Shown here in pieces: positions 5,040 through 44,303 of a stretch of DNA of 64,000 nucleotides (position 1 is its first letter; each line of letters starts with the position of its first letter). The translations under genes were made by a program, and so were the position numbers. Source of the stretch: a virus. The stretch lies in IMG/VR virus record IMGVR_UViG_3300047462_000172. The stretch is one strand, 5' to 3'. The notes below the pieces were generated by a model that was not told the origin of the DNA, ran no database searches, and saw only the letters and a list, made by a program, of their open reading frames with translations.

Positions 5040-5041
5040 AA

Positions 5042-16479: not shown

Positions 16480-16839
16480 CTATATCTTCTTACAATTCGC
16501 GTGATAGGTCGAGGCGCCTGCCTTAGTCATGTTCAACTCTTTCATGAAAAGTTCGATAATCTCTCCACGAGAAGCTTGAGGATTCTGCTTGAAGATCAAC
16601 AGGGCACGCTCTTTCTTACTCAAACCACCAACGCTTGCCTCAGCCTTGACTTCAACGACTTCTTCCTGTGCAAGATGGGAAACTTCCACAACCACTTCGA
16701 CAGGAGTCTCCTCTTGAACTGACTTGATTCGTGCTTCAACAATCGACCAAACATGAGGATACTCTTTACCAGACTCCTCAGTCCAAACCAAGAGACCGTT
16801 GCGACGAAGACTGGTGCAATTGAAGTTATCGATCATCAT
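16480..16839 (-). CDS. Protein with C-terminal 'AGASTY' helical module (putative DNA-binding)
   Basis: SKKERALLIF...SRGEIIELFMKELNMTKAGASTYHANCKK. Confidence 0.7.
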   Translation of the reverse strand: MMIDNFNCTSLRRNGLLVWTEESGKEYPHVWSIVEARIKSVQEETPVEVVVEVSHLAQEEVVEVKAEASVGGLSKKERALLIFKQNPQASRGEIIELFMKELNMTKAGASTYHANCKKI

Positions 16840-16882
16840 GTGTGTTTCTCCTTACGTTGAAGAGATTATCGCTGACCTTACC

Positions 16883-17008
16883 CTATTGATCCACAGTCTC
16901 AGCAGTCAGGATCGAAGTCGTAGGGTAGGGGAGGTTTGACTCTTTGGTCCAAACAAGAACATTGTTTCGGTAGAGTGAAGTCACCTCGATTTGTTCGTTG
17001 ATTTCAGT
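16883..17008 (-). pseudogene. Start-less paralogue of the N-terminus of 16480..16839
   Basis: Reads EINEQIEVTSLYRNNVLVWTKESNLPYP versus TSLRRNGLLVWTEESGKEYP. Near-identical cassette header, but no in-frame ATG after AAGGAGA. Confidence 0.6.
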
Positions 17009-17096
17009 GGTTCTCCTTACGATGAAGAGATTATAGATAAACTTATCGTTGATGGGAAGAGGCTGCCCTATTGTAGGACAGCCTCGTTGGTCTTAC

Positions 17097-17165
17097 CTAA
17101 TCTTCGATAGGTTCGAACCTAATCATCAGTCGATCAATAAATGATTTCTTGATCTCGTATTTCAT
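17097..17165 (-). CDS. 22-aa peptide with its own cassette header
   Basis: TCAAGGAGATATCAATG, then MKYEIKKSFIDRLMIRFEPIED*. Confidence 0.5.
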   Translation of the reverse strand: MKYEIKKSFIDRLMIRFEPIED

Positions 17166-17261
17166 TGATATCTCCTTGATTTGACAAAGATATCATCCCA
17201 CTTTAATCAAATCAAAACAAGTAGTCTCACCATCATAGATGAGACTACTTGAACTTATTCG

Positions 17262-17423
17262 TTATTCGTTGATCGAACCATAAAGTCTTGTACCATTTTC
17301 ACTAACTCTTTCAATACCTGACCCATATGGTTCACCATTGTTCTGATTAGTAATATCAATAAAGACTTCTAAAGACTTGTCCTTGACATTACTAAGAATG
17401 TTGATAAGTTCTTGAATTGTCAT
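17262..17423 (-). CDS. 53-aa protein (not in ORF track)
   Basis: TCAAGGAGATGTAAATG, then MTIQELINILSNVKDKSLEVFID... Confidence 0.6.
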   Translation of the reverse strand: MTIQELINILSNVKDKSLEVFIDITNQNNGEPYGSGIERVSENGTRLYGSINE

Positions 17424-17840
17424 TTACATCTCCTTGATTGAATTGATGAGGAGAGTATAAGTCCTCTCCTCATTCAAGTCTATAGTCTCACCTACTCATC
17501 ATAACAACTTCTTCCACAAAATTCATCAATAAACGAGAGCACTACCTTGTCCTTAAGCATGCTCTCGTTTATAATTTCGAGTGCATGAGGTACATCATCG
17601 CCCATTGCGATACACCACTTGAAGTCAATATCCTCCTCATACTTCTCGTTAATTGCATCTTGCCTTTCTTCATCATCCATCAGTGCTTGGGTGAGAGAGA
17701 ATAGAATGTGCTTGTTGTCCTTATCACGCCAAACACACCTACTACCAAATTCCTTCTCTAACTTCGTAAATGACATTGAGATCTCCTTGATTTGACAAAG
17801 AGATCATCCTTGATCTCTTCATCTAAGTCTCTTGTCTCTC

Positions 17841-18155
17841 CTACTTTATTTGTCCTACTTTCATTATAATGTAGTATTGGTCAGGCTCTTCACTTTCTTC
17901 TTCATCTTGGTAATGTACTTGACCAATCCATTGTCCACTTTCATTCTTATTCCACTTGACAATAGAACCAGAATTGTTGTTGAACTTACCATTCTTATTC
18001 CACATGACAATAGAACCAGAATTGTTGTTGAACTTACTTACATACTTCTTGAGTTTCGCAACTGTATTGCTTACCTTACAAACCTCACTTGACCAATCGA
18101 TTGAAGTAGGACCACATGAGTAATTGATCTCGTCAACAAACACCAATACGTACAT
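17841..18155 (-). CDS. Hypothetical protein with an internal 16-aa tandem duplication
   Basis: KFNNNSGSIV(M/K)WNKN twice. Cassette RBS present. Confidence 0.65.
   Translation of the reverse strand: MYVLVFVDEINYSCGPTSIDWSSEVCKVSNTVAKLKKYVSKFNNNSGSIVMWNKNGKFNNNSGSIVKWNKNESGQWIGQVHYQDEEESEEPDQYYIIMKVGQIK
17942..18037. repeat. 2 x 48-bp tandem direct repeat (1 mismatch)
   Basis: CATTCTTATTCCAC(T/A)TGACAATAGAACCAGAATTGTTGTTGAACTTAC at 17942-17989 and 17990-18037. Confidence 0.95.
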
Positions 18156-18407
18156 TTGGTTCTCCTTGAATTGATGAGAAGACTATCACTCATCCTCATC
18201 ATCAGGAGAAGGACACTCATCCTCATCAGACATGTTGATCAGGTAAGAGATCACCATATCCTGAGCATTATCCTGAATGAAGGCTTTCACTTGTTCTTTA
18301 GACTGACCACCTGCAAACGGTTGGATCTCTTCAAACGAAAACGAGATAGTAATCTTCATGTGATCTCCTAATTGATGGGGAGAGTATAACCTCTCCCCAT
18401 CTTCAAG

Positions 18408-18941
18408 TTAAGCGAGTGCTGCAACAGCAGTCGGGTTGACAATATATGTCATCTTGTCAACTCTGATCGCAATGATCGATTCGACCGCATAAGTCCGAAT
18501 GATCACTTTGTTCTGAAGTCCACCTTGCTCTCCCTCCTCAGAACGAGCAGGAAGTCCAGGAATTTGATCTTTCGGAGTCAAAATACCATCGACACGATAG
18601 TGGACATCACCAGCCTTCAGGAAGATCACTTCCAAGTATTCATTTCCGTTGTGATTGACAAACGGAGTTCCAGTCTCTCGTTGACCCCAAGCACGAGGAG
18701 ATAACTGAAACGATTCAGGATCCTTACCTTCAGCAGCGAGACGTCGCTTGACCATATTGTCGTAAGCATTGACATGTTTATTACTAAACACCATGACATT
18801 CGAACCGATCGTGATCTTCGATACTCTCCCTTGCAAAGGGTTTTTTTGACCACCAGTCAACTTGACAGCAGTTTCAGTATCAAGTCCGATGAAACTTGCA
18901 CCATTCACCTTGTCTGTCATAATTTCGCGAACTGTCGACAT
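18408..18941 (-). CDS. Hypothetical protein (177 aa)
   Basis: AAGGAGAACCAAATG header; long clean ORF. Confidence 0.75.
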   Translation of the reverse strand: MSTVREIMTDKVNGASFIGLDTETAVKLTGGQKNPLQGRVSKITIGSNVMVFSNKHVNAYDNMVKRRLAAEGKDPESFQLSPRAWGQRETGTPFVNHNGNEYLEVIFLKAGDVHYRVDGILTPKDQIPGLPARSEEGEQGGLQNKVIIRTYAVESIIAIRVDKMTYIVNPTAVAALA

Positions 18942-19305
18942 TTGGTTCTCCTTACGTGATTTGGAGATTATCGCTTAGTCTTGGTTTAGGGTCAACTAGA
19001 AGACAGTGATTTCTCCTCAGAGAGTGATATGGATCCCAAAATCTTCAAGACCAACACTATCATTCAAGTCATTGATCACATCAACGACACTCCCATCACA
19101 GCCACAGTTGAACTCATCCTGAATTGCCTCGAGAAGAGCATCATAATCGACATCAGAGATATCGATGCTGCTCTCACCAAATTCCTTGATCATTTTCTTG
19201 AAGAAATGATCAACACCCTTCACCACATCAGACATCTCAACGATGATTTTCATGTGAACTCCTAACTGATGGGGAGAGTATACAGTATCTGTTGTTAGGG
19301 TCAAC

Positions 19306-19335
19306 AAAAAAGAAGGGAGTGTGCTGTCCTCCCTT
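19306..19335 (-). terminator. Intrinsic terminator
   Basis: On the minus strand: AAGGGAG-N9-CTCCCTT followed by C and T6. Confidence 0.7.
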
Positions 19336-19347
19336 TAAAGGTGTGGA

Positions 19348-19866
19348 TCACGAATCCACTGGAGAATATGGCTTATAAATCACGCGGTTAAACGCTTCTT
19401 TGATTGCTTTCAGATCCTTTTTCAGATGAGACATCTCGTATTGGACGTGAAGATTCTGAAGAATCTGTCTCTGTTCTTCGATACTCTTCACACCAAACTC
19501 TGCGAAGTGAGCAGCACAGTGTTGTGCATACTCACCCTCAAACTTATACTTACCAACCGATTCTATATTTCGAATCGCACTGTCGCTGACATTCGGATAC
19601 TTCAACCGCAACTTCGCGTACGTCAGCATCCGATCACCAACATACTTCAAGAGGTCAGGTGCATCAAACCGATACCGACGGTCAGGACTAAAGTCAACGT
19701 GAGGAACCTCACCTTCCTTACACACATGCAAGTTTGCACTGCAAGGAAGTTTCCAATGATTGGAGGGACGTGAATTCTCCCAGTATCCATCAGAGAGTTG
19801 TCCTACCAACTCACAATCAAAGAGAGTCTTCTGTACTGCATTCGCGAAATAGATGTTTGTGTTCAT
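19348..19866 (-). CDS. Hypothetical protein (172 aa)
   Basis: Own TTGACC promoter at 19896-19901. Confidence 0.7.
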   Translation of the reverse strand: MNTNIYFANAVQKTLFDCELVGQLSDGYWENSRPSNHWKLPCSANLHVCKEGEVPHVDFSPDRRYRFDAPDLLKYVGDRMLTYAKLRLKYPNVSDSAIRNIESVGKYKFEGEYAQHCAAHFAEFGVKSIEEQRQILQNLHVQYEMSHLKKDLKAIKEAFNRVIYKPYSPVDS

Positions 19867-20938
19867 TTGGAGAGTATCACTTTATCTCGTGTTAGGGTCA
19901 ACGTCTCATCTATCCAACAAATCCCACTCTTATCCCACTTCCTTGACATAGGAAGGAGCATACTCGATCATAAACTTCGACACATCATCGAAGAACTCTT
20001 CAACCAACTGCTGGTACATTCCATCTTGTGTCTGACTGATAAGTTCATCAGCATCGACTTGAGCAAGTAGGGAGTTTGCACGTGTCTCTGAATCGTTTCC
20101 AAGATCACGAGCCATCTCTTTTGCGAACCCAAGTTGTTCTCGCAACACAACATGCGCTGCCAACTTTGCAAGGTCTTCAGGACCAAGTTTGACTGCAATA
20201 TCTTCGATGAACTGTTTCGTAGCCATTTGTATTCTCCTAACTGATGAGAGGAGCTTACTCCGATTTACCGTCCACGTAAAGAGTGAGATAACCTGCATCA
20301 GTTTGATACGTGATCTCATTCTCACTCTTATCGTCGATCAGGCTCTCGTCTCCGTTGAGTGCAGCGAGAAATTCAGGATACTTCTTGAGTGCTTTCTTGA
20401 GTGTGAGTTCGTCCTCTTCGATCATTCGTAAGCGACCAACGAACTCACCACCACACCACATCAATTCGAAGTACTGGCTATTATAGAGAAAGCCAACACA
20501 CTCAATATGGTCGTCAGTAAACGTTTTTGTAATCTTGATGCTCATATTAACCATTCTCCTCATCCACGAAGTCTGTGCTTGATAAAGAGACTATATCAGA
20601 AGTAAGCAACGATGCCGACGGCACTCACCGAGACGGAGACGATGCAGTCGAGTTCACCTTCTTCTTGATGATCATCTTCAAGAGTAAGATCGTACTTGAC
20701 CTTTGTTGCAATCTTCGTAGTGTTTCCAAGCCAATCAATCACGTAGACTGATTCCAACACTTCACAGCGAGGGCGGTTGTGTTCGAGAATACTAACAGGT
20801 TCAGTCAGTCCCTCGCCAAGTTCAATTGCAGACTCGAGTTGACTATCAGTGAGTTGAGTAAGATCGACGAAATCCATAGCCATTTTTAAGTTCTCCGTTA
20901 ATTGATGGGAGGAGTATCCTTACCCCTCCCATTCAAGA

Positions 20939-21451
20939 CTACGGTGAGGCTACGAGTTCATTGCCTCCTCGTTTACGACCACCCGTGATGATCACGAGTC
21001 CAAAACCAAGCATCGTCAGTGCTGCAACTGCAGAGTCTGCATGGATCTCAGGTGCCATCGTCGGCGAAGGGATCGTAGATGCTGCAAAACCAACATTTTG
21101 AACTGCACTAGTGAGTGAAGTGAACTCATATCCGAGTAGATATGTGCCAGCCTTCAGACCATTGAAGAGAAAGTCATAGTTATGACCACTCAAATCACCA
21201 GCAGCGAAGTTCAAGTCCGATGCAACGATACTGCCACTTGTCAAACTCGTAATCACCACATTGCCAGTGATTCCAGCAGCAGGAGTCGTCGATCCAGTGA
21301 TCAACTCGCTGTCGCTGTTGACAGAAAAGAGAGAAGTGTACTCAGTACCAGTCTGAATTTCCTGGTTGACAAAGTCTTCATTCACCTGTGCATTTGCAAG
21401 AGTACCCACGAGTGCCAGTGCAGCACCAAAACCCAAATGTCGAAGTTTCAT
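20939..21451 (-). CDS. Exported protein with signal peptide and VPEID/PEP-CTERM-like C-terminal sorting signal
   Basis: N-terminus MKLRHLGFGAALALVGTLANA|Q. C-terminus 'APEIHADSAVAALTMLGFGLVIITGGRKRGG' has a PE(I) motif, a TM helix and a basic cluster. Confidence 0.7.
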   Translation of the reverse strand: MKLRHLGFGAALALVGTLANAQVNEDFVNQEIQTGTEYTSLFSVNSDSELITGSTTPAAGITGNVVITSLTSGSIVASDLNFAAGDLSGHNYDFLFNGLKAGTYLLGYEFTSLTSAVQNVGFAASTIPSPTMAPEIHADSAVAALTMLGFGLVIITGGRKRGGNELVASP

Positions 21452-21480
21452 ATCAATCTCCTGGTTGAAGTTAAAGAACT

Positions 21481-21520
21481 ATTACCCTAAATATTCTACA
21501 ATATTTAGGGTAATAGTCAA
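21481..21520 (-). promoter_or_regulatory. sigma70 promoter embedded in a perfect 15-bp inverted repeat
   Basis: ATTACCCTAAATATT-CTAC-AATATTTAGGGTAAT. On the minus strand TTGACT...TAGAAT, with the -10 across the loop. Confidence 0.75.
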
Positions 21521-22697
21521 CCAGTCTCACTTAATCAATAAAGTCCATCGTTGTGAAGTTCATCGAAGAACCGATCAGTATAGCGCTTGCCTCTCACCAC
21601 GAAATAGAGAAACATTGAAATGAATGCACAGAACATGAACACCCAGATCAGAATTGCACCAACCAGATACACCAAACCCCTCAATACTTGAAGCATCAAC
21701 ATTTTTCTCTACTCCTTGTTTAGGTGGGGAGAGTATCCATTACTCTCCCAATTGGGTCAATAGCCTCACACTATTTTAGTGAAGTTTTGCAGGAATGTAT
21801 AATGAATTGTCGGTCTCGAAACACCCATCGCCATCATATTTCCGTACAGCGCTGGTAATGACCATTTTGTTGTTGGAGACATGATCGCTATCATGGTCAA
21901 TAGGCTTGATAACTGCACCAAAACCAACCATGATGTTGTATGGGAATCTTTGATCGTAATGTACCAAGCGTTTCGGTTTCATTTCCTATCACCACTCATG
22001 AAGAAACTGAATATCAATAAGATTCCAAGTGGCCATGCGATGCAAAGTAATATGAACTTCACAACCTTCCACACCCACATCCAGAAGTCAGACGACTGGG
22101 CATCAGTACCTTTGATCCACAATACCGTAATTAGTACGTAGACCACCAAGAACGCTTCAACCCAGTTCATCGAACTCATGAGGGGATCTTACCCTGTAAT
22201 GACATTCGGGTCAACGAGCAGATCTTTCACGAGATAACAGAGGATCTCCTCCGTTTGCACTCGGAGCAGCCATGTGCTATCGATCTCGTGTACTGGCCAG
22301 TATCCGTAATGCACGAAGTAGACATCGTCGTGAAGTTGACGTGCTTCTTCCAAAGTTGGCATGATTGTGTTCATATAGAGACCTTACGCCACCCAACCAA
22401 ACACTTCTACGCATCTCTTTGGTGCAGGACGCTCCTTGCTCCAACGAAGAAACTTCGTGATCATCTTGTTGGGATCAATCGTCATTCCATGCTTCCAGCC
22501 AAGCATCCAGAGACGAGCGTGCTCTTCACTCTCAACCTGCCTACGCTTCTGCTCATCGGTCAATTGCCCACTAACATAGCGAGAGGTTGCATGATAGACA
22601 GAAGGACCACCAGGCACCCAATCGGCGTCCCAAGTCAAGCCAACCTGATAGCCTTCGTTGAAGGAAGAGGTAGTGGGATCAATCATGTCTAACTGTT

Positions 22698-23051
22698 TCA
22701 TGTAGAGACCTTCCTATATTCACGCTCAGCCTTCAAGTTGGCTGCCTCATTTAACTGGCGATGATATTTGCAGATTCGCGGAAAGCCACGAAAGTCCTTC
22801 ATCCAGTTATCAATCTGCCAAGGGAGCAGAGTCTTGTGCTTCAGGTAATACTTCGCGGTGATCGTGCCATCCTTCGCATCAGCACCACTGAACCCAATCG
22901 TGTTGTCAAGTTGGGTGGTGTTCGCTACTTTCTCGGCTTCAGTCTGCCGATTGAAGAGAACAACCAGCGCACGTCCGATAACATGCGGACGCTTCGCTTC
23001 GTCTTTCAGCATCTCGATCAGAACATTGCGGTCTACGATTTTCATTTGCAT
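22698..23051 (-). CDS. Hypothetical protein (117 aa)
   Basis: AAGGAGA header, clean ORF. Confidence 0.7.
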   Translation of the reverse strand: MQMKIVDRNVLIEMLKDEAKRPHVIGRALVVLFNRQTEAEKVANTTQLDNTIGFSGADAKDGTITAKYYLKHKTLLPWQIDNWMKDFRGFPRICKYHRQLNEAANLKAEREYRKVST

Positions 23052-23708
23052 CTCTCCTTACGTTGAAGAGATCATAGCATATCGTGGTCTTCCATCCAAC
23101 GGACTGTCGCATCGGAGACGCCTGTTTTCTTCCAGTGCCTTGCGCGTGCAGATGCATTTTTCGATCGTTTCTTGCTTGGTGAGCCGCCTGGTGGTATACT
23201 TGAAATTGGCATGAACTCAACCAACTTCACGATCTCGTGATTGCTTGCAAACTCCTGGCAAGCATCCAGCGTTCCGCTGAATACAACTCTACCTTTAAAC
23301 CGCATACCGAAAGGATCTTCGAGTACTTCACGCACGTCTGCATATGATGTGAAGTTTGTCTCTTTGGTCGTTCTAAACGTAACGTTGTTGATCAGCACTT
23401 TCATATCAGGTTTCCTTTGCGAGATCGAGAGCCTCCAACCCTTCTTCAATCAGGGCAAGTTCCAGTGCTGTTGCACGATTCGCTTCACCTCCACGAACAA
23501 TCCAGTCAGTAATGTCAACCGCACGATTCTCGAGAATGTAGATCATGATCTCCAACACTTCTGCACTGACTTCAATTCGTTTCATTTCCAATCCTTAATC
23601 ATATCCTTCAACGTCTCCACCGAGAATATCAATGTCGAAGCACCAACGATAATCAAGTTAATCATTCATTCTCTCCAGTTATCCAACAAATCCCACTATC
23701 ATCCCACT

Positions 23709-24017
23709 TCACATTGAGTGGTACGTCTCTGTCGCAGGATCGCAGCAGCCACCTTTGTCGGCTTTGCGAATGGCGATAGGCTTTCGTTCAGGATCAAGCA
23801 TATTGTACGTAGTCGTCATCACGTTGACATGCTTATCGTAGTGTTCTTGATCGGTGCATGTGTAGTAGTCATTAGTACCAAGATCAGCCTGCGAACGTGC
23901 AGCGTGTGCACGTGCAAGTTTTCGATTGTGAGCTGCCATCGAACGAAGCGCACCAGCTTGAGTCTTGCAATGAGCAACAATGTGAAGGGTAATATTGTGA
24001 TAAACTACGTATTGCAT
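23709..24017 (-). CDS. Hypothetical protein
   Basis: AAGGAGAACCAAATG header with promoter. Confidence 0.65.
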   Translation of the reverse strand: MQYVVYHNITLHIVAHCKTQAGALRSMAAHNRKLARAHAARSQADLGTNDYYTCTDQEHYDKHVNVMTTTYNMLDPERKPIAIRKADKGGCCDPATETYHSM

Positions 24018-28255: not shown

Positions 28256-28801
28256 TCATTTGGAAGCCTTTTTTGCATTGTAGAAATACGTGGTTGCACC
28301 TGCTTGACTCATATCTAATTCCTTCATAAAGATCTGGATGACTTCTTTGTTGGAGAGACTCTTGTGCTTCTCATAAAGAGCAGCAGCGAGAATCTGCTTT
28401 CCACCTTTCTTCATCTTTCCGTCAGTCTTCACTTCAACTTGAACACCTTCGCGTGTTTCGGTTGTAGAGACTACCGTACTGTACGATGATTGTGAGGTGA
28501 ATATCCAAGGGGAGTCCACTCGTGCTTGCGCAATCTTCTTCGCAGCCTTGATCAGTGCTTGATCAGGATCGTACTTCTCACCGAGAATGATCGCTTCGTC
28601 AACCAAGCGCTGCGCATACATTCGTGCTTCGATCGGATCGCTGACAGCGAACCCACCGTGCGTCAGATTGTTGATAATCCCATGTGCAGTGGCGAGACGA
28701 TCGGCTGATTCCTCGATCAGAGTTCGAACATCTTGAACTGCACCACACCTACTGGTGTTATCAATATGCAATCGTTCGAGAACGTGATGGACATTTAACA
28801 T
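28256..28801 (-). CDS. Protein with C-terminal 'AGATTY' helical module
   Basis: GKQILAAALY...SNKEVIQIFMKELDMSQAGATTYFYNAKK. Confidence 0.7.
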   Translation of the reverse strand: MLNVHHVLERLHIDNTSRCGAVQDVRTLIEESADRLATAHGIINNLTHGGFAVSDPIEARMYAQRLVDEAIILGEKYDPDQALIKAAKKIAQARVDSPWIFTSQSSYSTVVSTTETREGVQVEVKTDGKMKKGGKQILAAALYEKHKSLSNKEVIQIFMKELDMSQAGATTYFYNAKKASK

Positions 28802-29632: not shown

Positions 29633-29704
29633 CGAAATCATTTCAAACTCTCCGTTAGTGAAGGTAGGGAGATCATAACCCTCCCTACCTTTCACATCCA
29701 CAGG

Positions 29705-30451
29705 TCAGGCAAACTTCTGATACAAAGTACTCGCGTACGCAGCACCCATGCCGAGCTGGTCCTGCAACTTCTGGATGATCTCCTTGCGAGACCAGTCCTT
29801 CGCGGCATACTTCTCGATGATCACCTGCGCCTTCGCCGAAGCAGTGCCACCCGACTTCTTTTTCGCAGCAGCAGCCTTCTTCTTCTTCGGAGCGGTCTTC
29901 TTGCTCTTCACGACAGACTTCCGCAGCGGTCTTACGTTTTCGCGGAGGGTCTTTCGCTTTCGCGGAGCCGGTGCAGGAGCAGGCTCGTTCGCAGTTTCCG
30001 CCGCAAGACCAGCAGCCTCTTCACTTCCACTCGCGGCTTCGGTCTGTTCGATCAGCGCCAAAGCCTCATCAGCAGTACGTTCAAAAATCATGTCAGCCTC
30101 CTTTTCATTTACAACTGTTCGACTGCCAATCCAATCAAGGATGAAATTATCCCTGAATGTTGCCCAGTCGGTGAAACTCTCTACAACATCGCCATCATCA
30201 TCTTCATTACCCTTGATGGCAACAGCGGTCAGGTCATACTCACCTTCAATCGACTTGAGTTCCTGATACGCCTCGCTTGCCATCTTGATCCTGTTCTGCC
30301 ATATTGCAGAACCACCAGCATCATCCTTAATCGGATCACCTTTGGAGTTCACCCGTTGTGTTCCATCAGCGTTCCGCTTCAACAATTCGTTCTTGTTCGC
30401 AAACAAAAACGATCTCTGTTCATCCGTAATCGGAGTACTAAATTCATTCAT
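29705..30451 (-). CDS. Protein with a histone-H1-like Lys/Ala/Pro linker and the C-terminal helical module
   Basis: PAPAPAPRKRK...KKKKAAAAKKK, then SAKAQVII...SRKEIIQKLQDQLGMGAAYASTLYQKF. Confidence 0.75.
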   Translation of the reverse strand: MNEFSTPITDEQRSFLFANKNELLKRNADGTQRVNSKGDPIKDDAGGSAIWQNRIKMASEAYQELKSIEGEYDLTAVAIKGNEDDDGDVVESFTDWATFRDNFILDWIGSRTVVNEKEADMIFERTADEALALIEQTEAASGSEEAAGLAAETANEPAPAPAPRKRKTLRENVRPLRKSVVKSKKTAPKKKKAAAAKKKSGGTASAKAQVIIEKYAAKDWSRKEIIQKLQDQLGMGAAYASTLYQKFA

Positions 30452-30462
30452 TATGCATCACC

Positions 30463-30774
30463 TTACTGTTTCAGAAGTACAATCTCCACGAAGTCTTTGG
30501 CTTCTTTGAGACCAATCTGGGTAATTTCGCGGACACGCTTGATCGCACCAAGCTTATTGGTAGGAGCTTGCGCTTTCAATTCATTCAGCTGCTGGGCGGT
30601 GAACGAAACACGAATCAACGGACTGGTATTCGGAACATCAAATGTGAAATCATTCGAGCGAACACCAACCAACGCCTCGAATGTTTCTGGGTGCGCTTCT
30701 GCCATTCGAAGTGCGATATCAGCCAACTCATCAACTGGCATCACACGAACAGATGCGAGAACAGAATACTTCAT
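30463..30774 (-). CDS. Protein with a ribosomal bL12 CTD-like motif (paralogue B)
   Basis: 'NKLGAIKRVREITQIGLKEAKDFVE'. Confidence 0.7.
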   Translation of the reverse strand: MKYSVLASVRVMPVDELADIALRMAEAHPETFEALVGVRSNDFTFDVPNTSPLIRVSFTAQQLNELKAQAPTNKLGAIKRVREITQIGLKEAKDFVEIVLLKQ

Positions 30775-31855: not shown

Positions 31856-32251
31856 TTATTCATTATCAACTACCTTTTTACAATTGGTGTAATAGGTAGC
31901 TGCGCCAGCAGGCGTGAGGTTCGCTTTGTCTATCAATGCTTTAATTATCTCGCCACGAGTCGATCCTTGCATCGATCGATATATCTTTATCGCAGCTTCA
32001 GTCTTGGAGCCTGCGGTGGGTTGGTTTGTCTTCTTCTTGGACCTCTTCTTTGGTGCAGGAGGTGCAGTTGCAGGAAAGTCTATCTTCTCGTCAGTTGGCT
32101 CGAACTTACCATCAGTTTTAAGGACATCGAGTTCTCCTTCTATTGTTTTGAATTTGATTCGCTTATCGGTGATGAGCGTAATCTCACCGAGAAGTGTTTT
32201 CTCACCGCGACCATCATCAGATGTCCATCTAACGACGTCTCCTACTTTCAT
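31856..32251 (-). CDS. SH3-like N-terminus plus C-terminal 'AGAATYY' module
   Basis: MKVGDVVRW...GEI; then GSKTEAAIKIY...TRGEIIKALIDKANLTPAGAATYYTNCKK. Confidence 0.7.
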   Translation of the reverse strand: MKVGDVVRWTSDDGRGEKTLLGEITLITDKRIKFKTIEGELDVLKTDGKFEPTDEKIDFPATAPPAPKKRSKKKTNQPTAGSKTEAAIKIYRSMQGSTRGEIIKALIDKANLTPAGAATYYTNCKKVVDNE

Positions 32252-32537: not shown

Positions 32538-32984
32538 CTAGGCTGCGTGCTTCAGTTTCTGGTAGTAGGTGCTTGCTCCTGCGGGAGTAAGCCCTGCATC
32601 CTCCATGAAGGCGCTCAAGACATCCTTTCGGGGTTTCTTGGCGAGCTTCTTGAAGATTGCTCGGCAGATGCCTGCCTTCGAACCCTCATCTGGACGTCGA
32701 CCCCTACCCGAGCTTCCGGAGGCACGCTTCGTTGCCTTCCCACCGTTTCCTTCGGCTGCAGTGAGAAACTTCTGGTAGTATGTCGATGCGGATGATGGCG
32801 TCAACCCAACATTCTCGACGAAGGCTTCGAGGACTTCCTTGCGCGACTTCTTGCTGTGCATTTTGTGAAAGATCGTTCGAGCCTGTTCCGTCTTCGAACT
32901 GGTTGGTACGACTCGAGTTGCGCGCTTGGTGGCGGTTCGGGTACGTATCGTTTTCGTGGGTGCAGGTGCAGTCTGTGTTTCCAT
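32538..32984 (-). CDS. Protein made of two tandem 'ASTYYQK' modules
   Basis: SKTEQARTIF..SRKEVLEAFVENVGLTPSSASTYYQKF and SKAGICRAIF..RKDVLSAFMEDAGLTPAGASTYYQKL. Confidence 0.75.
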   Translation of the reverse strand: METQTAPAPTKTIRTRTATKRATRVVPTSSKTEQARTIFHKMHSKKSRKEVLEAFVENVGLTPSSASTYYQKFLTAAEGNGGKATKRASGSSGRGRRPDEGSKAGICRAIFKKLAKKPRKDVLSAFMEDAGLTPAGASTYYQKLKHAA

Positions 32985-34289: not shown

Positions 34290-34598
34290 ATGAAGCGAAT
34301 TCATCAGTCGAGTACCGTTAAGGGGATCCTTAGGGGAGCGTTGGCGAAGATTAAGAAAGGCTGGACGCAAGGACAGTTTTCTAAACGGACTGGTAAAGGA
34401 AGGTCCTACTGTGCAGTTGGTGCGATGCGTTCTTGCAGCAGCAATTCTATTAAAGGTGTAGACGCAGTGATTCAAGCCAAAAGATTGTTGGTTAAGGCTA
34501 ATGGTATCCGTTGGGGTATCGTTGATTGGAATGATCAACCGAGGCGGACGCAGGCTGATGTTATCGCCGCATTCAAGAAGGCGATAACTCTCGCATAG
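34290..34598 (+). CDS. DUF6197-like basic protein
   Basis: 'GWTQG...YCAVGAM...WND.P.RT..DVIAAF' pattern. Family name is from recall, not a search. Confidence 0.6.
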   Translation: MKRIHQSSTVKGILRGALAKIKKGWTQGQFSKRTGKGRSYCAVGAMRSCSSNSIKGVDAVIQAKRLLVKANGIRWGIVDWNDQPRRTQADVIAAFKKAITLA

Positions 34599-34607
34599 GG
34601 CAGACGC

Positions 34608-34644
34608 TTGACCATAATCGTAGGGTGGTGGAAACTCCACCCTA
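34608..34644 (+). promoter_or_regulatory. Hairpin-embedded promoter of the helicase/MTase operon
   Basis: TTGACC-17-GAAACT, with TAGGGTGG/CCACCCTA arms flanking the -10. Confidence 0.6.
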
Positions 34645-36135: not shown

Positions 36136-36165
36136 TTGAAGGCAGGAATAGGGTAAGCTACCTTT

Positions 36166-37413: not shown

Positions 37414-38099
37414 AGCCAATCTTCCAAGACCTGTGCATCAACTTCGATCAGCTACTTTCTACGCCTGACCTCAAGCAGATGCTAAAGGTCCTCGACAAGC
37501 AGTCTCAGGACAAAGAAGCTAAGAAGCGTACTGATCCTATCAAAGCACCTCTCTATGAAGAGTCTGAGAAGTGTCCGCTGTACTTTGGTCTTGGCTTCGA
37601 ATGGCTCGCCTACCACTTCCTGGTTCAGTATGGCAAGTATTGGAACATCTCTCCTCTTCGTATGGTAATGAGCATTGGCTCAACCGAGAAGGACGTTGGT
37701 GTTGATGGGGAGGGGATCACTCACGCCAAGATTGGCAACTTCGTTGGTACGAAGCCTACTCCTGGTTCTCCTGTCTACTTGCAGATGAAGGCAACGTTGG
37801 ACCCAACGAAAGAGTACACACCAAATGATGGTTCACGCCTTGGCAACTTCTTCGCTGCTGCTCAGTGCAAGGCTGCACGCGCGAAGAAGTCGCAGACCGC
37901 GCGTTACGTTGTAATGCATACAGGAAGCAAGCTATCCTACCATTTCAATAACTATGCGCCGAATGTTGAAGAGATCAACTTTAAAGACATCTCTCAGAAG
38001 ATGGATGGTGATTATGGGTTCTTAAACTATCTACGTGCTGAAGTTGGTCTTGATCCTATTGCACAGCCTGAATGCGCAGAGGACGTTGAAGCTGCATGA
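37410..38099 (+). CDS. Putative Mrr-type PD-(D/E)xK endonuclease
   Basis: 'GFEWL...KDVGVDGEG...YLQMK' fits E...DxG(V/I)D...QxK. Confidence 0.6.
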   Translation: MKPIFQDLCINFDQLLSTPDLKQMLKVLDKQSQDKEAKKRTDPIKAPLYEESEKCPLYFGLGFEWLAYHFLVQYGKYWNISPLRMVMSIGSTEKDVGVDGEGITHAKIGNFVGTKPTPGSPVYLQMKATLDPTKEYTPNDGSRLGNFFAAAQCKAARAKKSQTARYVVMHTGSKLSYHFNNYAPNVEEINFKDISQKMDGDYGFLNYLRAEVGLDPIAQPECAEDVEAA

Positions 38100-38503
38100 T
38101 TGATGACATCTACCGCTCTGAAGAACGAATCAAACAAAACGGTGAGGTCTTCACTCCGATGCCCCTTGTTTATGAGATCCTCGACAAGCTTCCTCCTGAA
38201 GTCTGGCACAAAGACAAAACGTTCCTTGACAACTCATGTGGCGATGGCAACTTCCTCGAAGGTGTCCTTCGTCGCAAGGTAGAGAAAGGAATCAAGGTGC
38301 TGAAGGCACTATCAACGATCTATGGTGTAGACCTTATGCCCGACAATGTCCTTCACGCCCGCCAGCGACTCGTTCGAATCGCAAAGGAACTCAATCCTAA
38401 AGTGAAAGAGGACGTATGCCGAGAGATCGTTAACGCAAACATCGTCTGCCACGACGCTCTCACCTACGACTATTCATTCAGCGAAGAACCACTGTTGACT
38501 TGA
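38096..38503 (+). CDS. SAM-binding N-half of a gamma-class DNA methyltransferase
   Basis: Motif X 'GEVFTP', motif I 'LDNSCGDGNFL', 'IYGVDL', 'IVCHDAL'. Ends before any NPPY. Confidence 0.8.
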   Translation: MIDDIYRSEERIKQNGEVFTPMPLVYEILDKLPPEVWHKDKTFLDNSCGDGNFLEGVLRRKVEKGIKVLKALSTIYGVDLMPDNVLHARQRLVRIAKELNPKVKEDVCREIVNANIVCHDALTYDYSFSEEPLLT

Positions 38504-38731
38504 TGACCCTGTTAGGTGATAATGGCTTCGACGTCGCGATGAGCGGGTGGCCCAGGGAGTCCCGGAACGTTGTCTAAAATTTTATATGGGCAGACCACTT
38601 GTATTGTACACCATTTCACGCGAAATTCATACTAATTTATTTGCTTTTTCGCTCGCTATTTCGCTCAGTGAGACAGTTGTAGATAAACCACCGAACCACG
38701 ATAATCACCCTATTGTTAAACAGCGGAGAGA

Positions 38732-39910
38732 ATGATGGCGAAGAAACTAGTTCAAGAAGTCGATCAGTTCGAAGATGACGAAGCGATCGATGGTGGTGAA
38801 GATGAAGTCCAAATGTATGGCGAGAAGGAAGTTCGCTGGTATCAGAAGGCTGCTTGCAATCAAGTCGCTGACGCTCTCGAACGAGGTGTGAAGCGCATTC
38901 TCGTTGAACTTCCGACTGGTGCTGGTAAGACGATTACGTCTGGTCTGATCTTCTCTGATGATCGGAATCGCAAGACTCTCGGAATCAAGAAAGGCAAGCC
39001 TCTGCGTCTACTTTTCATCGCTCACAAGCACAGACTGTTGACTCAGGCTGAGCAAGCGTATGCAGATGCTGCTGGTGTTCAGTTCATTCCTCACTCTGCG
39101 TTCATGGACATTCCTCCTGGCTTGGTCTGGGACATCGCTTGTATTGATGAAGCACACCATGAAGCGATGCAGACGATCCAATACCGTTTGGATAAGTTGG
39201 GTCGCAAGGTGATCATTGGTCTTACGGCGACTCCTGATCGAGCAGACGGAATGCTGATCAAGTTCGAAGAGATCGTTGCTCCGATCAGTCGAGAACAGTG
39301 TGTCGCTGAGGGTTGGTTGGCGGAGACTTCGTTGAACTCGATCGTTGATACACCTGCACAGGACAAGGTTCCGATCACGAAGATGGTCATCGATCAGTTT
39401 GGTCATGAGTTTGGTCAGACGATGATGTTCTTCCGAACGAAGCAGGAAGTTCGTGAGGTCAACGAGTATCTCTCGAAGTTGAAGTTCCGATCCATCGCTA
39501 TCCTAGATCAATCCAACAATGAGTTGGATGACCTTCTGAATCGATTCAGTGCTGGTAAGGTCCAGTTCCTCTTGAACTGCAATAAGATCAATGAGGGCGT
39601 TGATGTTAAGGGTTGTACTGATGTGTTCCTCGGTCGTCAGTATGGTTCTTATCCTCAACTGAATCAAGTGATTGGACGAGCCTCGAGACCTGATTCCGAA
39701 TGTCGTGTATGGGAGTTGATCAATCCGTTGAGTGGTCGGAACTTGGACACTACCGTTGTCGTTGGTACTCCGAAGCGTCATCGTTTGATCTCGAAGCGTC
39801 ATGGTAAGTGGATTGAACAGGACTTCGATTATGTATCTCATCGGAATGAGATCCAGTCGGGGATCACGATTCGTCATGGGACGGCATTGGATCGGGCACA
39901 GCGAGCGTGA
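38732..39910 (+). CDS. SF2 DExH helicase
   Basis: LPTGAGKT, DEAHH, TATPDRADG, INEGVDV, QVIGRASR. Confidence 0.9.
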   Translation: MMAKKLVQEVDQFEDDEAIDGGEDEVQMYGEKEVRWYQKAACNQVADALERGVKRILVELPTGAGKTITSGLIFSDDRNRKTLGIKKGKPLRLLFIAHKHRLLTQAEQAYADAAGVQFIPHSAFMDIPPGLVWDIACIDEAHHEAMQTIQYRLDKLGRKVIIGLTATPDRADGMLIKFEEIVAPISREQCVAEGWLAETSLNSIVDTPAQDKVPITKMVIDQFGHEFGQTMMFFRTKQEVREVNEYLSKLKFRSIAILDQSNNELDDLLNRFSAGKVQFLLNCNKINEGVDVKGCTDVFLGRQYGSYPQLNQVIGRASRPDSECRVWELINPLSGRNLDTTVVVGTPKRHRLISKRHGKWIEQDFDYVSHRNEIQSGITIRHGTALDRAQRA

Positions 39911-39970
39911 GTCGCTGGACGATCCCACTGAATCCAACTAAGATCCCACTATCGAAACACGGAGAGCATT

Positions 39971-41164
39971 ATGATTCCTTTTGACACGAATAAGTTAACC
40001 GTCAAGCACATGCAACTGAAAATGATCAGTGGTGCGTTGGGTGGAATGATGACCGTTCTCGATGAGAAACGGACTGCGAAGGCTGGTAAGGAGGTCTTTC
40101 AGAAGATCAAGGTTCCTTATCAACTGACTCGTGCATTCACGAAAAAGTATCGGATCACGAAATACATCAAGACTGTGCTGACTGCGGTTGTCTTCTACGA
40201 GAACCATGTTGTTTGTGTTGAACGACATCCTCTTGGAAACTTGGGTAAGGAAAAGACCCAAGGTCTGAATGGTGAGGTCTCGTGGGTGTCCGATGCAGAG
40301 AAGAACATTCGTGGAATGTTGGCTCCTCTTGCTCACGAGAAGGACTGGTACATTGATGGATCGTATGTCTATCACGTTGCGAACAAAGACCTTATTGATG
40401 CTGAGATCCTCTCATCGGATCGCAAATTTCGTCAGGTCAAGGTCGATGCTGTCAAGTTATCTGCTCTCGGTGATATTCCGATCGTGGAACAACGAGTGTG
40501 CTTGGCATTCTTTCCTTCGAATGGTGCGATGGCGTTGACTCCTCCGATTTGGAAGACTCTTACGAATATCGGACAGAGGCAGTTGACTGCGAAGGGTGAT
40601 ACACGAGCCGATGATATCGAGGATGACTCTTCGATTACGTATGTTCACAACGAGGCTGATCAGACACAGTTCGATCAGGTCGATCAGATGCTCTGTGTCA
40701 ACCTTGGATTCGCATTGAAAGCAGGACGTGTCCTTTCTGAGGTGTTTGGTTATGATTCGATCGAGCCGCTTGGTCTCGATGATATGATGATTCAACTTCG
40801 GACTGTGAACCTTCCGAACATTGCGAATGAGGTCAAGCAGACTTTCGATACTGGACTTCGATTCACGATTGCGATCGCTTGGTTGATCGGAATGACCAAG
40901 CGTGTTGAGACATTGGACTCGTATGTTGCATTAAGGACTCTCCTTAAGCACTTGACGACGAAGGGTGTCTATCGTAAGGGTGCGTTTCGTCCTGAGTCGA
41001 TCTTTAAGACTGGTGCTTCACTCGATCAGGTCAAGAGGATTTCGATCAAGGAAGCGAAGGCTGCAGTCAAGAGTCTGACGCTTGATGATTTCTTACGCGC
41101 CAGTCGCATTGCCCGAGAAGCAGATAAGGGTGATGCTCCTGTCGTCGATCAATTAGGAGTCTGA
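39971..41164 (+). CDS. Hypothetical protein (397 aa)
   Basis: GGAGAG RBS, long ORF, no motif recognised. Confidence 0.75.
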   Translation: MIPFDTNKLTVKHMQLKMISGALGGMMTVLDEKRTAKAGKEVFQKIKVPYQLTRAFTKKYRITKYIKTVLTAVVFYENHVVCVERHPLGNLGKEKTQGLNGEVSWVSDAEKNIRGMLAPLAHEKDWYIDGSYVYHVANKDLIDAEILSSDRKFRQVKVDAVKLSALGDIPIVEQRVCLAFFPSNGAMALTPPIWKTLTNIGQRQLTAKGDTRADDIEDDSSITYVHNEADQTQFDQVDQMLCVNLGFALKAGRVLSEVFGYDSIEPLGLDDMMIQLRTVNLPNIANEVKQTFDTGLRFTIAIAWLIGMTKRVETLDSYVALRTLLKHLTTKGVYRKGAFRPESIFKTGASLDQVKRISIKEAKAAVKSLTLDDFLRASRIAREADKGDAPVVDQLGV

Positions 41165-41535
41165 GATGAACAATGTTCACATTGAAAAGATCACCCAGGT
41201 CAACATAACGCTGACTGCGGATCAGTGGGACCTCTACACGAGGTCAAGGGACTGCTCGGAAGCGGCAGAAGCGTTGAACAAGACGCTGGAGGAGTCTATA
41301 AATGATGGACTCAGTCGCGAAGAGGTTGTTCTGATGATGGATCAGGTGATGGTGAAATACGCAAACTATGGTGCTTGGGATACTGAACCTCGCTGGGTCC
41401 TTGAACAGATCCTCGATGAAGTGTTTGGAAAGGAAGTTGTTTCGGTGAGGCGTTGACTTGATAGGGTGAGTAATATATACTCTCCGGGCTGATGAAATTT
41501 AACCAACGTGCTATGGTAGCACACGAGGAGTTCAA

Positions 41536-42594
41536 ATGCAGAAGTTAAAGTATGAGTTGATTCGGAACGCGAAGGTACGCGTTTCTGCTTCGAAAGATTC
41601 GAAGAACTTTCCCATCGCGACGATTACCGTCAACGGTATCTACACCCACACGTTTGATCCCGAATCTCGAGTTTCTCGGAACTTGGAGACGATGGACGTT
41701 CAGACGTTGCAGAACTTGATGACTGGAGGTACGTACTTCTTCGTCGAGGGTGTGTTGGTTGACTTCCGATACGGCAACTACAATGGATTCGTCCACGAGG
41801 ATGAGTCGATCAAGCAGTTGGTCAAGGTGATCGGAATCGTTGAGGCAAAGGATCTGTCTACTCGTCTTCAGGAAAACCTGACGTCGAATAAGTACAGTCT
41901 CGGTGCTTCGTGGTCGAAGAATGAGATCCACGTTCCTGAGTACAACGATGGTGGTGAGTTCAAGAGTGAGTTGCTGTTTGGTTGGAATCCGTTCGTCAAG
42001 ACGGTGAACAGTGCATTTATGCTCTGGCGCTTGATCTGTGAGAATGGAATGAGGGGCGTGACATCTTTCTTGAACACGAAGATTCCGTTGATCAATCGTT
42101 GGGAGGAGCATTTGGACATTGCGAATGTTCAGATCCAAAACAAGGTTGATGGAATGGTCAAGAAGCGTCTCGCTGGTATGGGCGATCAGTACGCGACCGT
42201 TGCTGAGTTGCAGCAGATTGCGACTCATGCGCGTAAGCGTTTCGAGCGTACGATGCAGGGTGAGAATGCTCACGATCAATTGCGTACGATCATTCAGGTG
42301 GCTGATCCTTCGATGCATCTTGCGAATGTGTATCGTGAGAATGTGTTTAAGGACAAGCGCTTGAGTGCTCAGGTGCCTGGACATTTGTCTTTGTTCGATG
42401 CTTACAATCTCGCAACTGAGATTCGTACGCACACGAAGGAGACTGATGGTTCAAGTGCTCTCGCACTCGATCGTATGGCGAATGATTTCATCTTCAACCA
42501 TACCGATCTGACCCAGCATGCTTCGCGATTTGTCAAGCCGCGTGATGCGTCCTTCGATAACCACGAGAAAGCGTTCTTCGGAAAGTTGAACTGA
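41536..42594 (+). CDS. DUF932/DUF945-like protein
   Basis: 'AFMLWRLICENGM' resembles the family RLVCxNG motif. Own TTGACT-17-TATACT promoter. Confidence 0.6.
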   Translation: MQKLKYELIRNAKVRVSASKDSKNFPIATITVNGIYTHTFDPESRVSRNLETMDVQTLQNLMTGGTYFFVEGVLVDFRYGNYNGFVHEDESIKQLVKVIGIVEAKDLSTRLQENLTSNKYSLGASWSKNEIHVPEYNDGGEFKSELLFGWNPFVKTVNSAFMLWRLICENGMRGVTSFLNTKIPLINRWEEHLDIANVQIQNKVDGMVKKRLAGMGDQYATVAELQQIATHARKRFERTMQGENAHDQLRTIIQVADPSMHLANVYRENVFKDKRLSAQVPGHLSLFDAYNLATEIRTHTKETDGSSALALDRMANDFIFNHTDLTQHASRFVKPRDASFDNHEKAFFGKLN

Positions 42595-43112
42595 TAGGTA
42601 GGTGAGAGTAGTTGAGTGATCGGAAGCCAGCAGCGATGCTGGCTTCCTCATTTAGGAGATCTACAATGTCGAGATGGAAAGTGCTGAAGGGCTTGTACTA
42701 CGAGGCGTTCTCCGATCGAGATCAGATTCAGAACGTACTCGCTGTCATCGGTGATATCTACAGCGGAACATTTCCGGATGATTCACCAATGGGACTCTAT
42801 ACGGTTGGTGATGTGAAGAACTGCAAAGGGTTTCACGGAAGCATGCCGATGATCCATGAACTCACCGCTTCAATGCAAGGTAGGAGCGTGAGAGGCTTAA
42901 TGATTCATCTTGGGTTGAGTCCTCACGATCCGTTGGTAATTGAACTGCTGAAAGAGACAGATAATCAGCAGGAGAGGATCGTACCAATCATTCACAGATT
43001 GGCTGATAGTAAGTATGGAACACCTGCTATCATTGATGAGTTGAAGATTGCTGATCTTTGTTCTCGAGCAGCACGGACACTCCAAGGGTTGACCTGAAAT
43101 CTGATATAGCGT

Positions 43113-43406
43113 ATGATGGTGGTAATCGGTAGGAGAACCATCATGCGCTATGTTGTTGCATCTGTAGATGTCCTTGGCAGCCCGGAACAGGGCTGGGAAA
43201 TGAATGACGAACGTCAGATCGGTACGATCGAGATAGACGAGGATGTATTCTATGACGACGATGCGATCATGGATGTTCTCGCAGAGTCTGAGTACTTCGA
43301 CCCAAACGATTACACCACGGTAGAGGTTGACGGAGACGAATCACGTCTTGTCCTTATCGACTTCGAAACCGGACGCCCGCTCCTCACTTTGTCCCGAGCG
43401 CAGTAG
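43113..43406 (+). CDS. Small acidic hypothetical protein
   Basis: TTGACC-17-TATGAT promoter; the AGGAGA RBS points to a start at 43143. Confidence 0.65.
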   Translation: MMVVIGRRTIMRYVVASVDVLGSPEQGWEMNDERQIGTIEIDEDVFYDDDAIMDVLAESEYFDPNDYTTVEVDGDESRLVLIDFETGRPLLTLSRAQ

Positions 43407-43472
43407 GGAGAGACGCTTGGCTTGAGGCGCCAACTGGGTATAATTCCTTCATCGTAAATCAATGAAGGAGTT

Positions 43473-44303
43473 TTGAAGATGACGCAAGTACCCGCCCACC
43501 TGAAGGCACGCCTCGAGCAGAAAGTTTTAGAGTGTGTTCTCAAGGCTTCGAAGCACTTTGGACGCAACTACACGACTCCTTACATTCGGTATGATGTCCG
43601 TGGGCGTGTAGGTGGATATGCGCACGGGACCGAGTTTATTAACTTAAACCCGATCCTTCTAATGGAGAACGTCGAGGAGTATGTCAACCAGGTCGTTCCT
43701 CACGAAATCGCTCACTGCATTGATACTGCGAATGGTGATAACCGCCGGACCGGTGGTATTGTCTTCACCCGCAGTGGCAAGATGCGCCGCTCAAAGAGAT
43801 CTATTCACGGACCTTCCTGGCGTGCTATTATGCACGTCTTTGGTTGCGATGCAGACCGCACGCACAATATGGATACGTCAAATGCTCAGGTGAAGACGAA
43901 GACGAAGTACGAGTATAAGTGCCGGGCTTGCAATAAGGCGATCTTCGTGAGTTCTGTCAGGCACAATAAGCAGCAGCGCTCATTGATGTTGTACGGTCGT
44001 GGGGAATACTGGTGCGCAAAGTGCGGACCTGATGGTCAACTTGAGTTCGTTGCAAACCGAGGGAAGGTCTCGTTCGATCAGGCTCGTCAGGCTGCATTGC
44101 AACCGAAGCCATCGTACCCGCCGGTCCCGGTTGCCTCTCAATACGATCCGAAGCCTGAAGTGTCGAATGTAAACCGGGCACGCAAACTCTATGGGATGTA
44201 CGGGATGCTGGGACGAGGTGTCTTCATTCGCAAATGTGTTGAGGCTGGTCTTAAGGAAACGACAGCATCGACTTACTATCAGAACTTCAGGAGCGGTAAA
44301 TGA
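43473..44303 (+). CDS. sprT: SprT-family zinc metalloprotease with zinc ribbon and C-terminal 'ASTYY' module
   Basis: 'INLNPILL...VVPHEIAH', 'HGPSWRAIM..FG', 'YKCRAC...CAKC', tail 'LKETTASTYYQNF'. Confidence 0.9.
   Translation: MKMTQVPAHLKARLEQKVLECVLKASKHFGRNYTTPYIRYDVRGRVGGYAHGTEFINLNPILLMENVEEYVNQVVPHEIAHCIDTANGDNRRTGGIVFTRSGKMRRSKRSIHGPSWRAIMHVFGCDADRTHNMDTSNAQVKTKTKYEYKCRACNKAIFVSSVRHNKQQRSLMLYGRGEYWCAKCGPDGQLEFVANRGKVSFDQARQAALQPKPSYPPVPVASQYDPKPEVSNVNRARKLYGMYGMLGRGVFIRKCVEAGLKETTASTYYQNFRSGK

Follow-up and report, generated by a model that had tools for sequence, protein, structure and literature searches.

Seven copies of one module in six genes

The DNA analysed here is a stretch of 64,000 nucleotides from the virus record IMGVR_UViG_3300047462_000172, referred to below in its whole length as the window, and the subject is a module of about 50 amino acids, here called the AGASTYY module, which is carried by six of its proteins. 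A preliminary description of the sequence had reported seven copies of this module at the ends of six open reading frames (ORFs), one of which has two copies. As shown in Table 1, all six ORFs are present as described. Their ends align, the seven copies form an alignment block of about 51 columns, and the copies share the signature SK-x3-A-x2-I[FY] ... R-x-E[IV] ... G[LM][TS]-x-AGA[ST]TY[YF].

A profile hidden Markov model (HMM) was built from the seven copies, as the preliminary description had proposed; the copies aligned and the family was recovered. The search of the six-frame translation of the 64-kb window with this HMM gave no eighth copy, and the next match had an E-value above 1. An independent HMM was determined using 118 foreign family members only, with zero window sequences. 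This foreign-only HMM recovers 7/7 copies among the 1,177 six-frame ORFs of the window, with E-values that run from 1.1e-44 for the two-module ORF through 6.9e-22 to the most divergent copies (Table 1), and the best unrelated ORF of the window has an E-value of 4.8. Since the divergent copies in ORF 29705 and in the SprT gene are recovered by a profile that contains no window sequence, they are real members of the family. Chance or low-complexity similarity among the copies is ruled out by the same result.

The N-terminal parts of the carriers are unrelated, as had been claimed, and the proteins have no mutual BLAST similarity after the module is stripped off, where the sole match among the remaining parts is a K/A/P low-complexity one with an E-value of 0.003. 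The K/A/P-rich basic linkers are also present and precede the module in ORFs 29705, 31856 and 32538. The module has an isoelectric point (pI) of 9.3-10.5 in the window, and three of the attached N-terminal parts are acidic.

Table 1. Coordinates of the module carriers (HMM scores refer to the foreign-only HMM) and of other features in the window
Feature	Position	Strand	Composition	HMM score
Carrier 1, 119 aa	16480..16839	-	acidic 69-aa N-terminal part (pI 4.6); C-terminal module 16483-16632	72.8 bits
Carrier 2, 181 aa	28256..28801	-	129-aa part of no assigned family; C-terminal module 28259-28414	E 7.1e-19
Carrier 3, 248 aa	29705..30451	-	acidic N-terminal part; K/A/P-rich H1-like linker ~29858-29989; divergent module 29708-29857	E 7.2e-13
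Carrier 4, 131 aa	31856..32251	-	beta-rich, possibly SH3/KOW-like N-terminus ~32087-32251; P/K-rich linker 32024-32086; module 31859-32023	E 1.5e-21
Carrier 5, 148 aa, pI 10.5	32538..32984	-	basic N-terminal tail; module a 32745-32909; G/S/R linker; module b 32541-32699; no other domain	E 1.1e-44
Carrier 6, SprT	43473..44303	+	SprT-like Zn metalloprotease ~43530-43844 (HEIAH); CxxC...CxxC zinc ribbon ~43902-44030; P-rich linker; divergent module 44145-44300	E 7.7e-07
ATCC(C/A)ACT repeats	17195-46048	+	mostly direct pairs or triplets 10-11 bp apart	
ATCCMACT array	45977-46048		5 exact copies, ~10 including near-matches	
rIIA homologue	2784-6166	+	next to it a 374-aa ORF that contains a NUMOD-like segment, after the homologue	
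bL12-like small protein	15669-16070	-	ribosomal bL12 C-terminal domain match	
bL12-like small protein	30463-30774	-	ribosomal bL12 C-terminal domain match	
IMP dehydrogenase / GMP reductase-type gene	55147-57324	-	split by an intein; Hint and LAGLIDADG-like segments (Pfam)	
NAMPT (nadV) gene	61930-63342	+	right end of the window	

Among the single carriers, the N-terminal part of carrier 2 is 42% identical to the protein P0101, and that of carrier 3 distantly resembles a 23-member cluster of module carriers (e.g. P0073 and P0182); the ESM Atlas gave no usable lead for the latter. The SH3-like assignment of the N-terminus of carrier 4 is a weak suggestion of its sequence pattern and a weak PHROG match, and its architecture recurs in P0075, P0128, P0143 and P0149. 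Carrier 5 has 72 homologues of 81-259 aa, none of them named. Its public gene call (P0001, 107 aa, used also in the ESM Atlas) starts at the internal M42, which cuts module 1 in half. From the good AGGAG ribosome-binding site and the full-length orthologues, the 148-aa reading is preferred.

The SprT protease had been named as one of the effectors, and it proved to be genuine. Carrier 6 matches the Pfam family SprT-like (PF10263) at 34.9 bits against a cut-off of 25.6 (E 1.4e-08) and contains the HExxH motif in the form HEIAH. Its score against Zn_ribbon_SprT is 14.4 bits (cut-off 28.1), although the CxxC...CxxC pattern of the Zn ribbon is present. A more probable start of the coding sequence is the ATG at 43479, which a GAAGGAG ribosome-binding site precedes by about 9 nt.

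Five of the carriers lie in a leftward block of small genes, and the SprT gene lies in a rightward helicase/methylase block. The carriers that were checked have sigma70-like -35/-10 elements and Shine-Dalgarno sites; a sigma70-like promoter lies upstream of carrier 1, and carrier 5 is preceded by a TTGACC-N17-TATTAAT promoter in addition to its AGGAG site. T4-type late boxes, TATAAATA, are confined to the sequence beyond 51 kb, with none between 14 and 45 kb. Megablast of the segment 28.0-33.2 kb found nothing that matched among 50,697 phage records. The carrier region belongs to the early genes for host take-over of a large, uncultured, marine-type and myovirus-like phage without a close cultured relative.

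Predicted fold and extent of the family

The preliminary description had proposed a three-helix, helix-turn-helix (HTH)-like domain, which is supported by the AlphaFold2 prediction, by the structural neighbours and by the turn signature. From an alignment of 125 diverse modules, helices are predicted at residues 8-19, 24-35 and 39-52 with a predicted local distance difference test (pLDDT) score of 84.5, and the prediction for the 148-aa protein from its single sequence consists of two three-helix units (pLDDT 82-90) joined by a flexible linker. The predicted module has the helix 2 - tight turn - helix 3 geometry of the tri-helical HTH superfamily, and helices 2 and 3 carry the canonical G-h-[ST]-x3-A signature.

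In the column statistics of the 125 modules, the conservation is 52% for G36, 77% for [LM]37, 94% for [TS]38, 98% for A42, 92% for T44 and 94% for Y45, so that the conserved G36-[LM]-[TS]-x-A-G-A42 agrees with the turn of classical HTH domains. Across the family, conservation is highest in helix 3. Also conserved are [ST]-K where helix 1 begins, R/K where helix 2 begins and K-K where helix 3 ends; K8, R24, K50 and K51 lie at helix ends, and the mean net charge of the family is +4.2.

The best Foldseek matches of the two-module protein are tandem-HTH DNA binders, namely the Mos1 transposase N-terminus, the DUX4 double homeodomain and CENP-B. The single module matches homeodomains, RecX repeats, the MCM winged helix and the BrxR HTH with Z-scores of 5-6, and it also resembles models of sigma-70 region 4. 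Some relatives of the window copies give sub-threshold Pfam matches, to WH_Rok, GerE, HTH_10 and Sigma70_r4_2, whose position is precisely that of the module. P0035, which has four tandem modules, matches HTH_IclR at 45.5 bits, above the cut-off only by summing the repeats. Sequence searches of the PDB using the 7- and 125-sequence profiles gave repeat-protein artefacts and the non-significant matches DEK_C (E 0.14), Csy4 (0.04) and T4 gp33 (0.3), and the ESM Atlas gave no named cluster for the module.

The AGASTYY module is a real, large and previously unnamed domain family of phages and prophages. At E <= 1e-3 the 7-sequence profile matched 2,578 cluster representatives (50% identity), of which 457 also pass E <= 1e-10. 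The expectation that the module is undescribed held true in that no curated description exists and no Pfam, NCBIfam or annotated PHROG model covers it; it is covered only by unannotated PHROGs, and every named homologue is called hypothetical. The supposed peculiarity of the cassette-rich block of this phage is refuted by the 2,578 clusters in phages and prophages.

The 150 best profile matches were analysed, in an order by summed score that favours multi-copy proteins. In 129/150 of them the module lies no more than 12 residues from the C-terminus, and 77/150 have 2-4 copies in tandem; the non-module parts fall into 62 unrelated clusters. SprT combined with the module occurs in 8/150 representatives and, in addition, in the IMG/VR loci L006 and L017 and in the AFDB entry A0A0F9IV60; the linker of one SprT carrier matches Pfam HC2, which is histone H1-like. 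Other fusion partners are a DnaJ protein, a second winged HTH and Alt-like ADP-ribosyltransferases, in which the modules are close to the N-terminus, while the locus L010 encodes a MuF head protein with the module and a lethal-factor-like protease domain. The combinations SprT+module, SH3-like+module, acidic+H1-linker+module and tandem-only are each conserved across many phages, which indicates that they are old architectures and not recent grafts. The neighbours in BFVD and AFDB, with 30-39% identity, are uncharacterised phage proteins, e.g. of Agrobacterium phage Atu_ph07 and of Rhizobium phages, and include one SprT-like protein and one entry auto-named KfrA_N.

The hosts or sources of the carriers include Vibrio, Colwelliaceae, Hydrogenophaga and a Verrucomicrobiaceae metagenome-assembled genome (MAG). 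The matches in bacterial assemblies are all genuine modules, and the Hydrogenophaga match, the only one checked for its context, adjoins phage genes for a terminase and a scaffold protein. Two contigs of 27,687 bp, L022 (JALVFC010000270.1, from a Thiotrichaceae MAG) and L007 (IMGVR_UViG_3300028400_000026), encode an identical 167-aa carrier; the two are apparently the same phage contig, placed in a bacterial MAG by binning.

The position of the module varies in some relatives. The loci L013 (IMG/VR G001, 114.5-115.6 kb) and L014 include three adjacent genes for proteins of 128-140 aa in which the module comes first, followed by a tail of about 70 aa, and these copies have a mean identity of 46.7% among themselves; a 432-aa protein in these loci also has the module at its N-terminus. 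The C-terminus is therefore not the only place of the module, and local duplication is one way in which it can expand. The metagenomic Alt-like ADP-ribosyltransferases P0072 (844 aa) and P0043 (795 aa) have two clear modules each, and by eye the region of about 600 aa before their ADP-ribosyltransferase domain seems to contain further degenerate helical repeats.

Divergence of the copies within and between genomes

A search of IMG/VR with a single protein gave no relative; loci were then sought with a degenerate DNA pattern for G-h-T-x-AGASTYY. In the syntenic 178-kb relative L001, at least 5 of the 6 carriers are kept, each with its module, and no orthologue of ORF 16480-16839 was found in the 20 kb of L001 examined. 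The identity between the window and L001 is 0.74 in the module versus 0.57 in the rest, and 0.60 versus 0.41, in the best cases, 0.69 versus 0.64 for carrier 2, and 0.46 versus 0.47 in the worst case. From these aligned sequences, the module is at least as conserved as the remainder of each protein. Multiple carriers are also found in unrelated large phages: an IMG/VR contig of 136 kb has four, a contig of 292 kb has seven, and Vibrio phage Bakedbeans (155 kb), which alone was found by tblastn with the two-module protein, has five (gp4, gp65, gp94, gp180 and gp186), all with the module at the C-terminus.

The mean pairwise identity of the modules is 31.6% within the window, with a range of 25-55%, versus 33.2% between different phages, and the nearest neighbour of each window module is its L001 orthologue or a module of another phage, and never a paralogue. 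The absence of paralogues among the nearest neighbours and the equal identities therefore indicate that the copies are old, independently maintained lineages. Recent spread of one cassette within the genome was considered and is ruled out by the identities of 25-55% and by the separate orthologues of each architecture.

These values bear directly on the interpretation in the preliminary description, according to which the module brings the six carriers to one DNA site or one host partner. This claim finds no support, as the identity within the window equals that between phages and thus gives no sign of a shared address that is specific to the genome. Instead, the conserved positions are those of the whole family, and this suggests a generic ligand, with DNA as the simplest candidate. 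The part of that interpretation that stands is an HTH-like module on unrelated proteins; the part that falls is one address special to the cassette block.

Two genes in the window, an rIIA homologue with 28-34% identity to rIIA of Ruegeria, Aeromonas and Vibrio phages and the nadV gene, mark the phage as a large myovirus with a T4-like lifestyle. Further genes are of note beside the carriers. Two small proteins have a segment that scores above the Pfam cut-off against the C-terminal domain of ribosomal bL12, with 29.4 bits (E 1e-06) and 35.0 bits (E 1.8e-08), and L001 keeps one of them (12143-12448); an intein-split gene of the IMP dehydrogenase / GMP reductase type is listed in Table 1.

Proposed DNA anchoring and the alternative readings

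The reading favoured here, with a confidence slightly better than even, is that the module represents an unnamed basic tri-helical HTH family that binds double-stranded DNA with little or no sequence specificity and anchors the fused proteins on DNA or the nucleoid. The module, usually at the C-terminus and sometimes N-terminal or in tandem, would keep the fused part on DNA or the nucleoid, and the six early proteins that would use it here are expected to be transcribed by the host RNA polymerase. The stand-alone tandem-module protein may behave as a small histone-like or architectural protein, and the SprT-type Zn protease may be directed at, or activated on, DNA-bound proteins via the module. 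Several features suggest DNA anchoring: a fold of the HTH class, a strongly basic charge, linkers that resemble H1, modules in tandem arrays, a helix 3 that hardly varies, the DNA-related partners, and a conservation of the module, between the window and L001, at least equal to that of the rest of each protein. Generic rather than specific binding is suggested by the family-wide conservation of helix 3 and by the equal identities within and between genomes. The partners, namely SprT, the Alt-like ADP-ribosyltransferases, the MuF toxins, DnaJ and a second winged HTH, would be proteins that act on DNA-bound targets or travel with DNA.

Several points weigh against this reading. The window copies reach the threshold of no curated HTH model and match no Pfam or PHROG family. 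All PDB matches of the two-module protein in Foldseek have E-values above 0.05, and the structural scores are within the range of any small three-helix bundle (Z < 8) and are not decisive. The helix-3 residues A42, Y45 and Y46 may belong to the core rather than the surface, and the highly conserved "recognition" helix could equally be a protein-binding face, as sigma region 4 or T4 gp33 bind the beta-flap of RNA polymerase (PMC7824862).

The last point leads to the reading of the module as a tag for a protein partner, in which it binds a conserved host protein (the beta-flap or alpha subunit of RNA polymerase, or a nucleoid protein) and recruits effectors such as the protease and the ADP-ribosyltransferases there instead of to DNA. 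One helix face is conserved across the family, sigma-70 region 4 is among the structural neighbours together with a weak Sigma70_r4_2 Pfam match, and the T4 namesake of the fused Alt-like ADP-ribosyltransferases is an RNA polymerase ADP-ribosyltransferase by PHROG annotation. HTH domains of the gp33 type bind RNA polymerase without DNA (PMC7824862), but the similarity of the module to gp33 is below significance (E 0.3). Nucleic-acid binding accounts better for the strong positive charge and for the H1-like linkers, and tandem arrays of up to four copies would be unusual for such a tag. In addition, the hosts range from Vibrio and Colwelliaceae to Hydrogenophaga and the Verrucomicrobiaceae MAG, and any partner would therefore have to be extremely conserved. 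The partner tag is considered unlikely.

Recognition of a specific sequence, in which the modules read one repeated phage DNA element and gather the carriers at regulatory or origin-like sites, is close to the view in the preliminary description and is likewise regarded as rather improbable, even though a candidate element exists. The octamer ATCCMACT occurs 25 times in the window against 4.9 expected, and 0/100 shuffles reach 25; it is arranged mostly in direct pairs or triplets, and a dense array lies at the boundary of two gene blocks (Table 1). The paired motif is also written ATCCCACT. By their arrangement in the sequence, the repeats look iteron- or operator-like and are a candidate site for the tandem two-HTH protein, which under sequence-specific recognition would read direct ATCC(C/A)ACT pairs at an 11-bp spacing; a protein with two flexibly linked HTH units is well suited to two phased half-sites. 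The syntenic L001 has 6 copies of the octamer in 20 kb, including one 11-bp pair, but at the Bakedbeans loci the octamer is at background level and unpaired. The seven window modules, with 25-55% identity, are no closer to one another than to those of unrelated phages, which would be unexpected if they read one site. The base-reading positions of a recognition helix normally vary with the site, whereas the putative recognition helix of the module is near-invariant over more than 2,500 clusters from very different phages.

A role of the module in loading cargo into the virion, where it would fix the cargo to the packaged genome for injection with the DNA, appears very improbable. T4 Alt and the MuF toxins are both capsid-carried classes, and the module lies inside MuF head-protein toxins (L010) and Alt-like ADP-ribosyltransferases of other phages. 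The carriers of the window, on the other hand, stand behind sigma70-type promoters in the early block, and the sequence between 14 and 45 kb has no T4-type late box. Since co-ejection would still need DNA binding, it would be a special use of DNA anchoring and not an alternative to it at this locus.

The module of the favoured DNA-anchor reading can be compared with known systems. Classical HTH domains (IclR, GerE/LuxR, sigma-70 region 4 and homeodomain-like) share with it the basic three-helix bundle of about 50 aa, the G-hydrophobic-[ST] turn and a helix of the recognition type. The module differs from them in having no predicted wing, a signature of its own (SK...A..I[YF]...R..II..F....G[LM]T.AGASTY[YF]) and a helix 3 that is near-invariant instead of variable. 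An AFDB cluster representative with the automatic name KfrA_N (PF11740) superposes on the module with a template modelling (TM) score of 0.84, a root-mean-square deviation of 0.5 Å and 35% identity over 46 residues, and KfrA_N and the module are both small basic HTH domains at a protein end. Unlike the module carriers, KfrA has a long coiled-coil tail and a role in plasmid stability, and the PF11740 HMM (cut-off 26.1 bits) matched 0/16 modules in three phage genomes at E <= 1 and none among the 150 members.

WH_Rok (PF23159), the DNA-binding domain of a Bacillus xenogeneic silencer, is the most frequent sub-threshold Pfam match on the module in the Alt-like carriers (P0072 at 76-117, P0046 and P0057), with E 1e-4 and 20.8-22.7 bits against a cut-off of 27.6, and the structure of the Rok DNA-binding domain, 5zuz, is in the Foldseek list with 24% identity. 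The WH_Rok HMM gave no module match in Bakedbeans, G001 and G002 and none on the window copies.

Two further likenesses concern the carriers as a whole. The activity of eukaryotic SPRTN needs a basic DNA-binding region downstream of the SprT and Zn subdomains (PMC9240642), and the order SprT protease, Zn subdomain and DNA-binding element in SPRTN/Wss1 is mirrored by carrier 6, as an analogy of predicted domain order only. The DNA-binding element of SPRTN is a short basic region and not an HTH, and carrier 6 is without PCNA, ubiquitin and VCP motifs. T4 MotB, the product of an early gene in a dispensable block, binds DNA non-specifically and alters H-NS-DNA complexes; it combines a small SH3/KOW-like N-terminus with a DNA-binding C-terminal domain, which carrier 4 resembles in outline (PMC7827196). 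The analogy with MotB is functional only, as its C-terminal domain is predicted to be an OB fold instead of an HTH and there is no sequence relation.

The design principle of a DNA-anchoring HTH fused to varied effectors is familiar, and the worth of the finding comes from the size and coherence of the family rather than from any novel mechanism. A bolder view, for which the chances are low enough that it is offered only tentatively, is that the AGASTYY module constitutes a dedicated phage nucleoid-address system, in which large lytic phages place early take-over effectors on one conserved DNA-anchoring HTH, so that these act specifically on DNA-bound host proteins. If this is true, the effectors would be the SprT protease, the Alt-like ADP-ribosyltransferases, the J-domain proteins and several acidic or SH3-like heads, and they would be aimed at RNA polymerase, at nucleoid proteins and at defence complexes that scan DNA. 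The stand-alone tandem protein would cover or mark the DNA, perhaps where the phased ATCC(C/A)ACT repeats lie.

Early regions are the least understood part of large phage genomes, and a curated model of the module would help to annotate them. As a DNA anchor, if it is one, the module would also provide a compact DNA-tethering tag for tool building, and the phage SprT proteases, the Alt-like ADP-ribosyltransferases and some of the MuF toxins would be predicted to act on DNA-associated targets. Thousands of phage proteins now called hypothetical, of which large marine and soil phages encode several each, would then have a name and a function open to testing.

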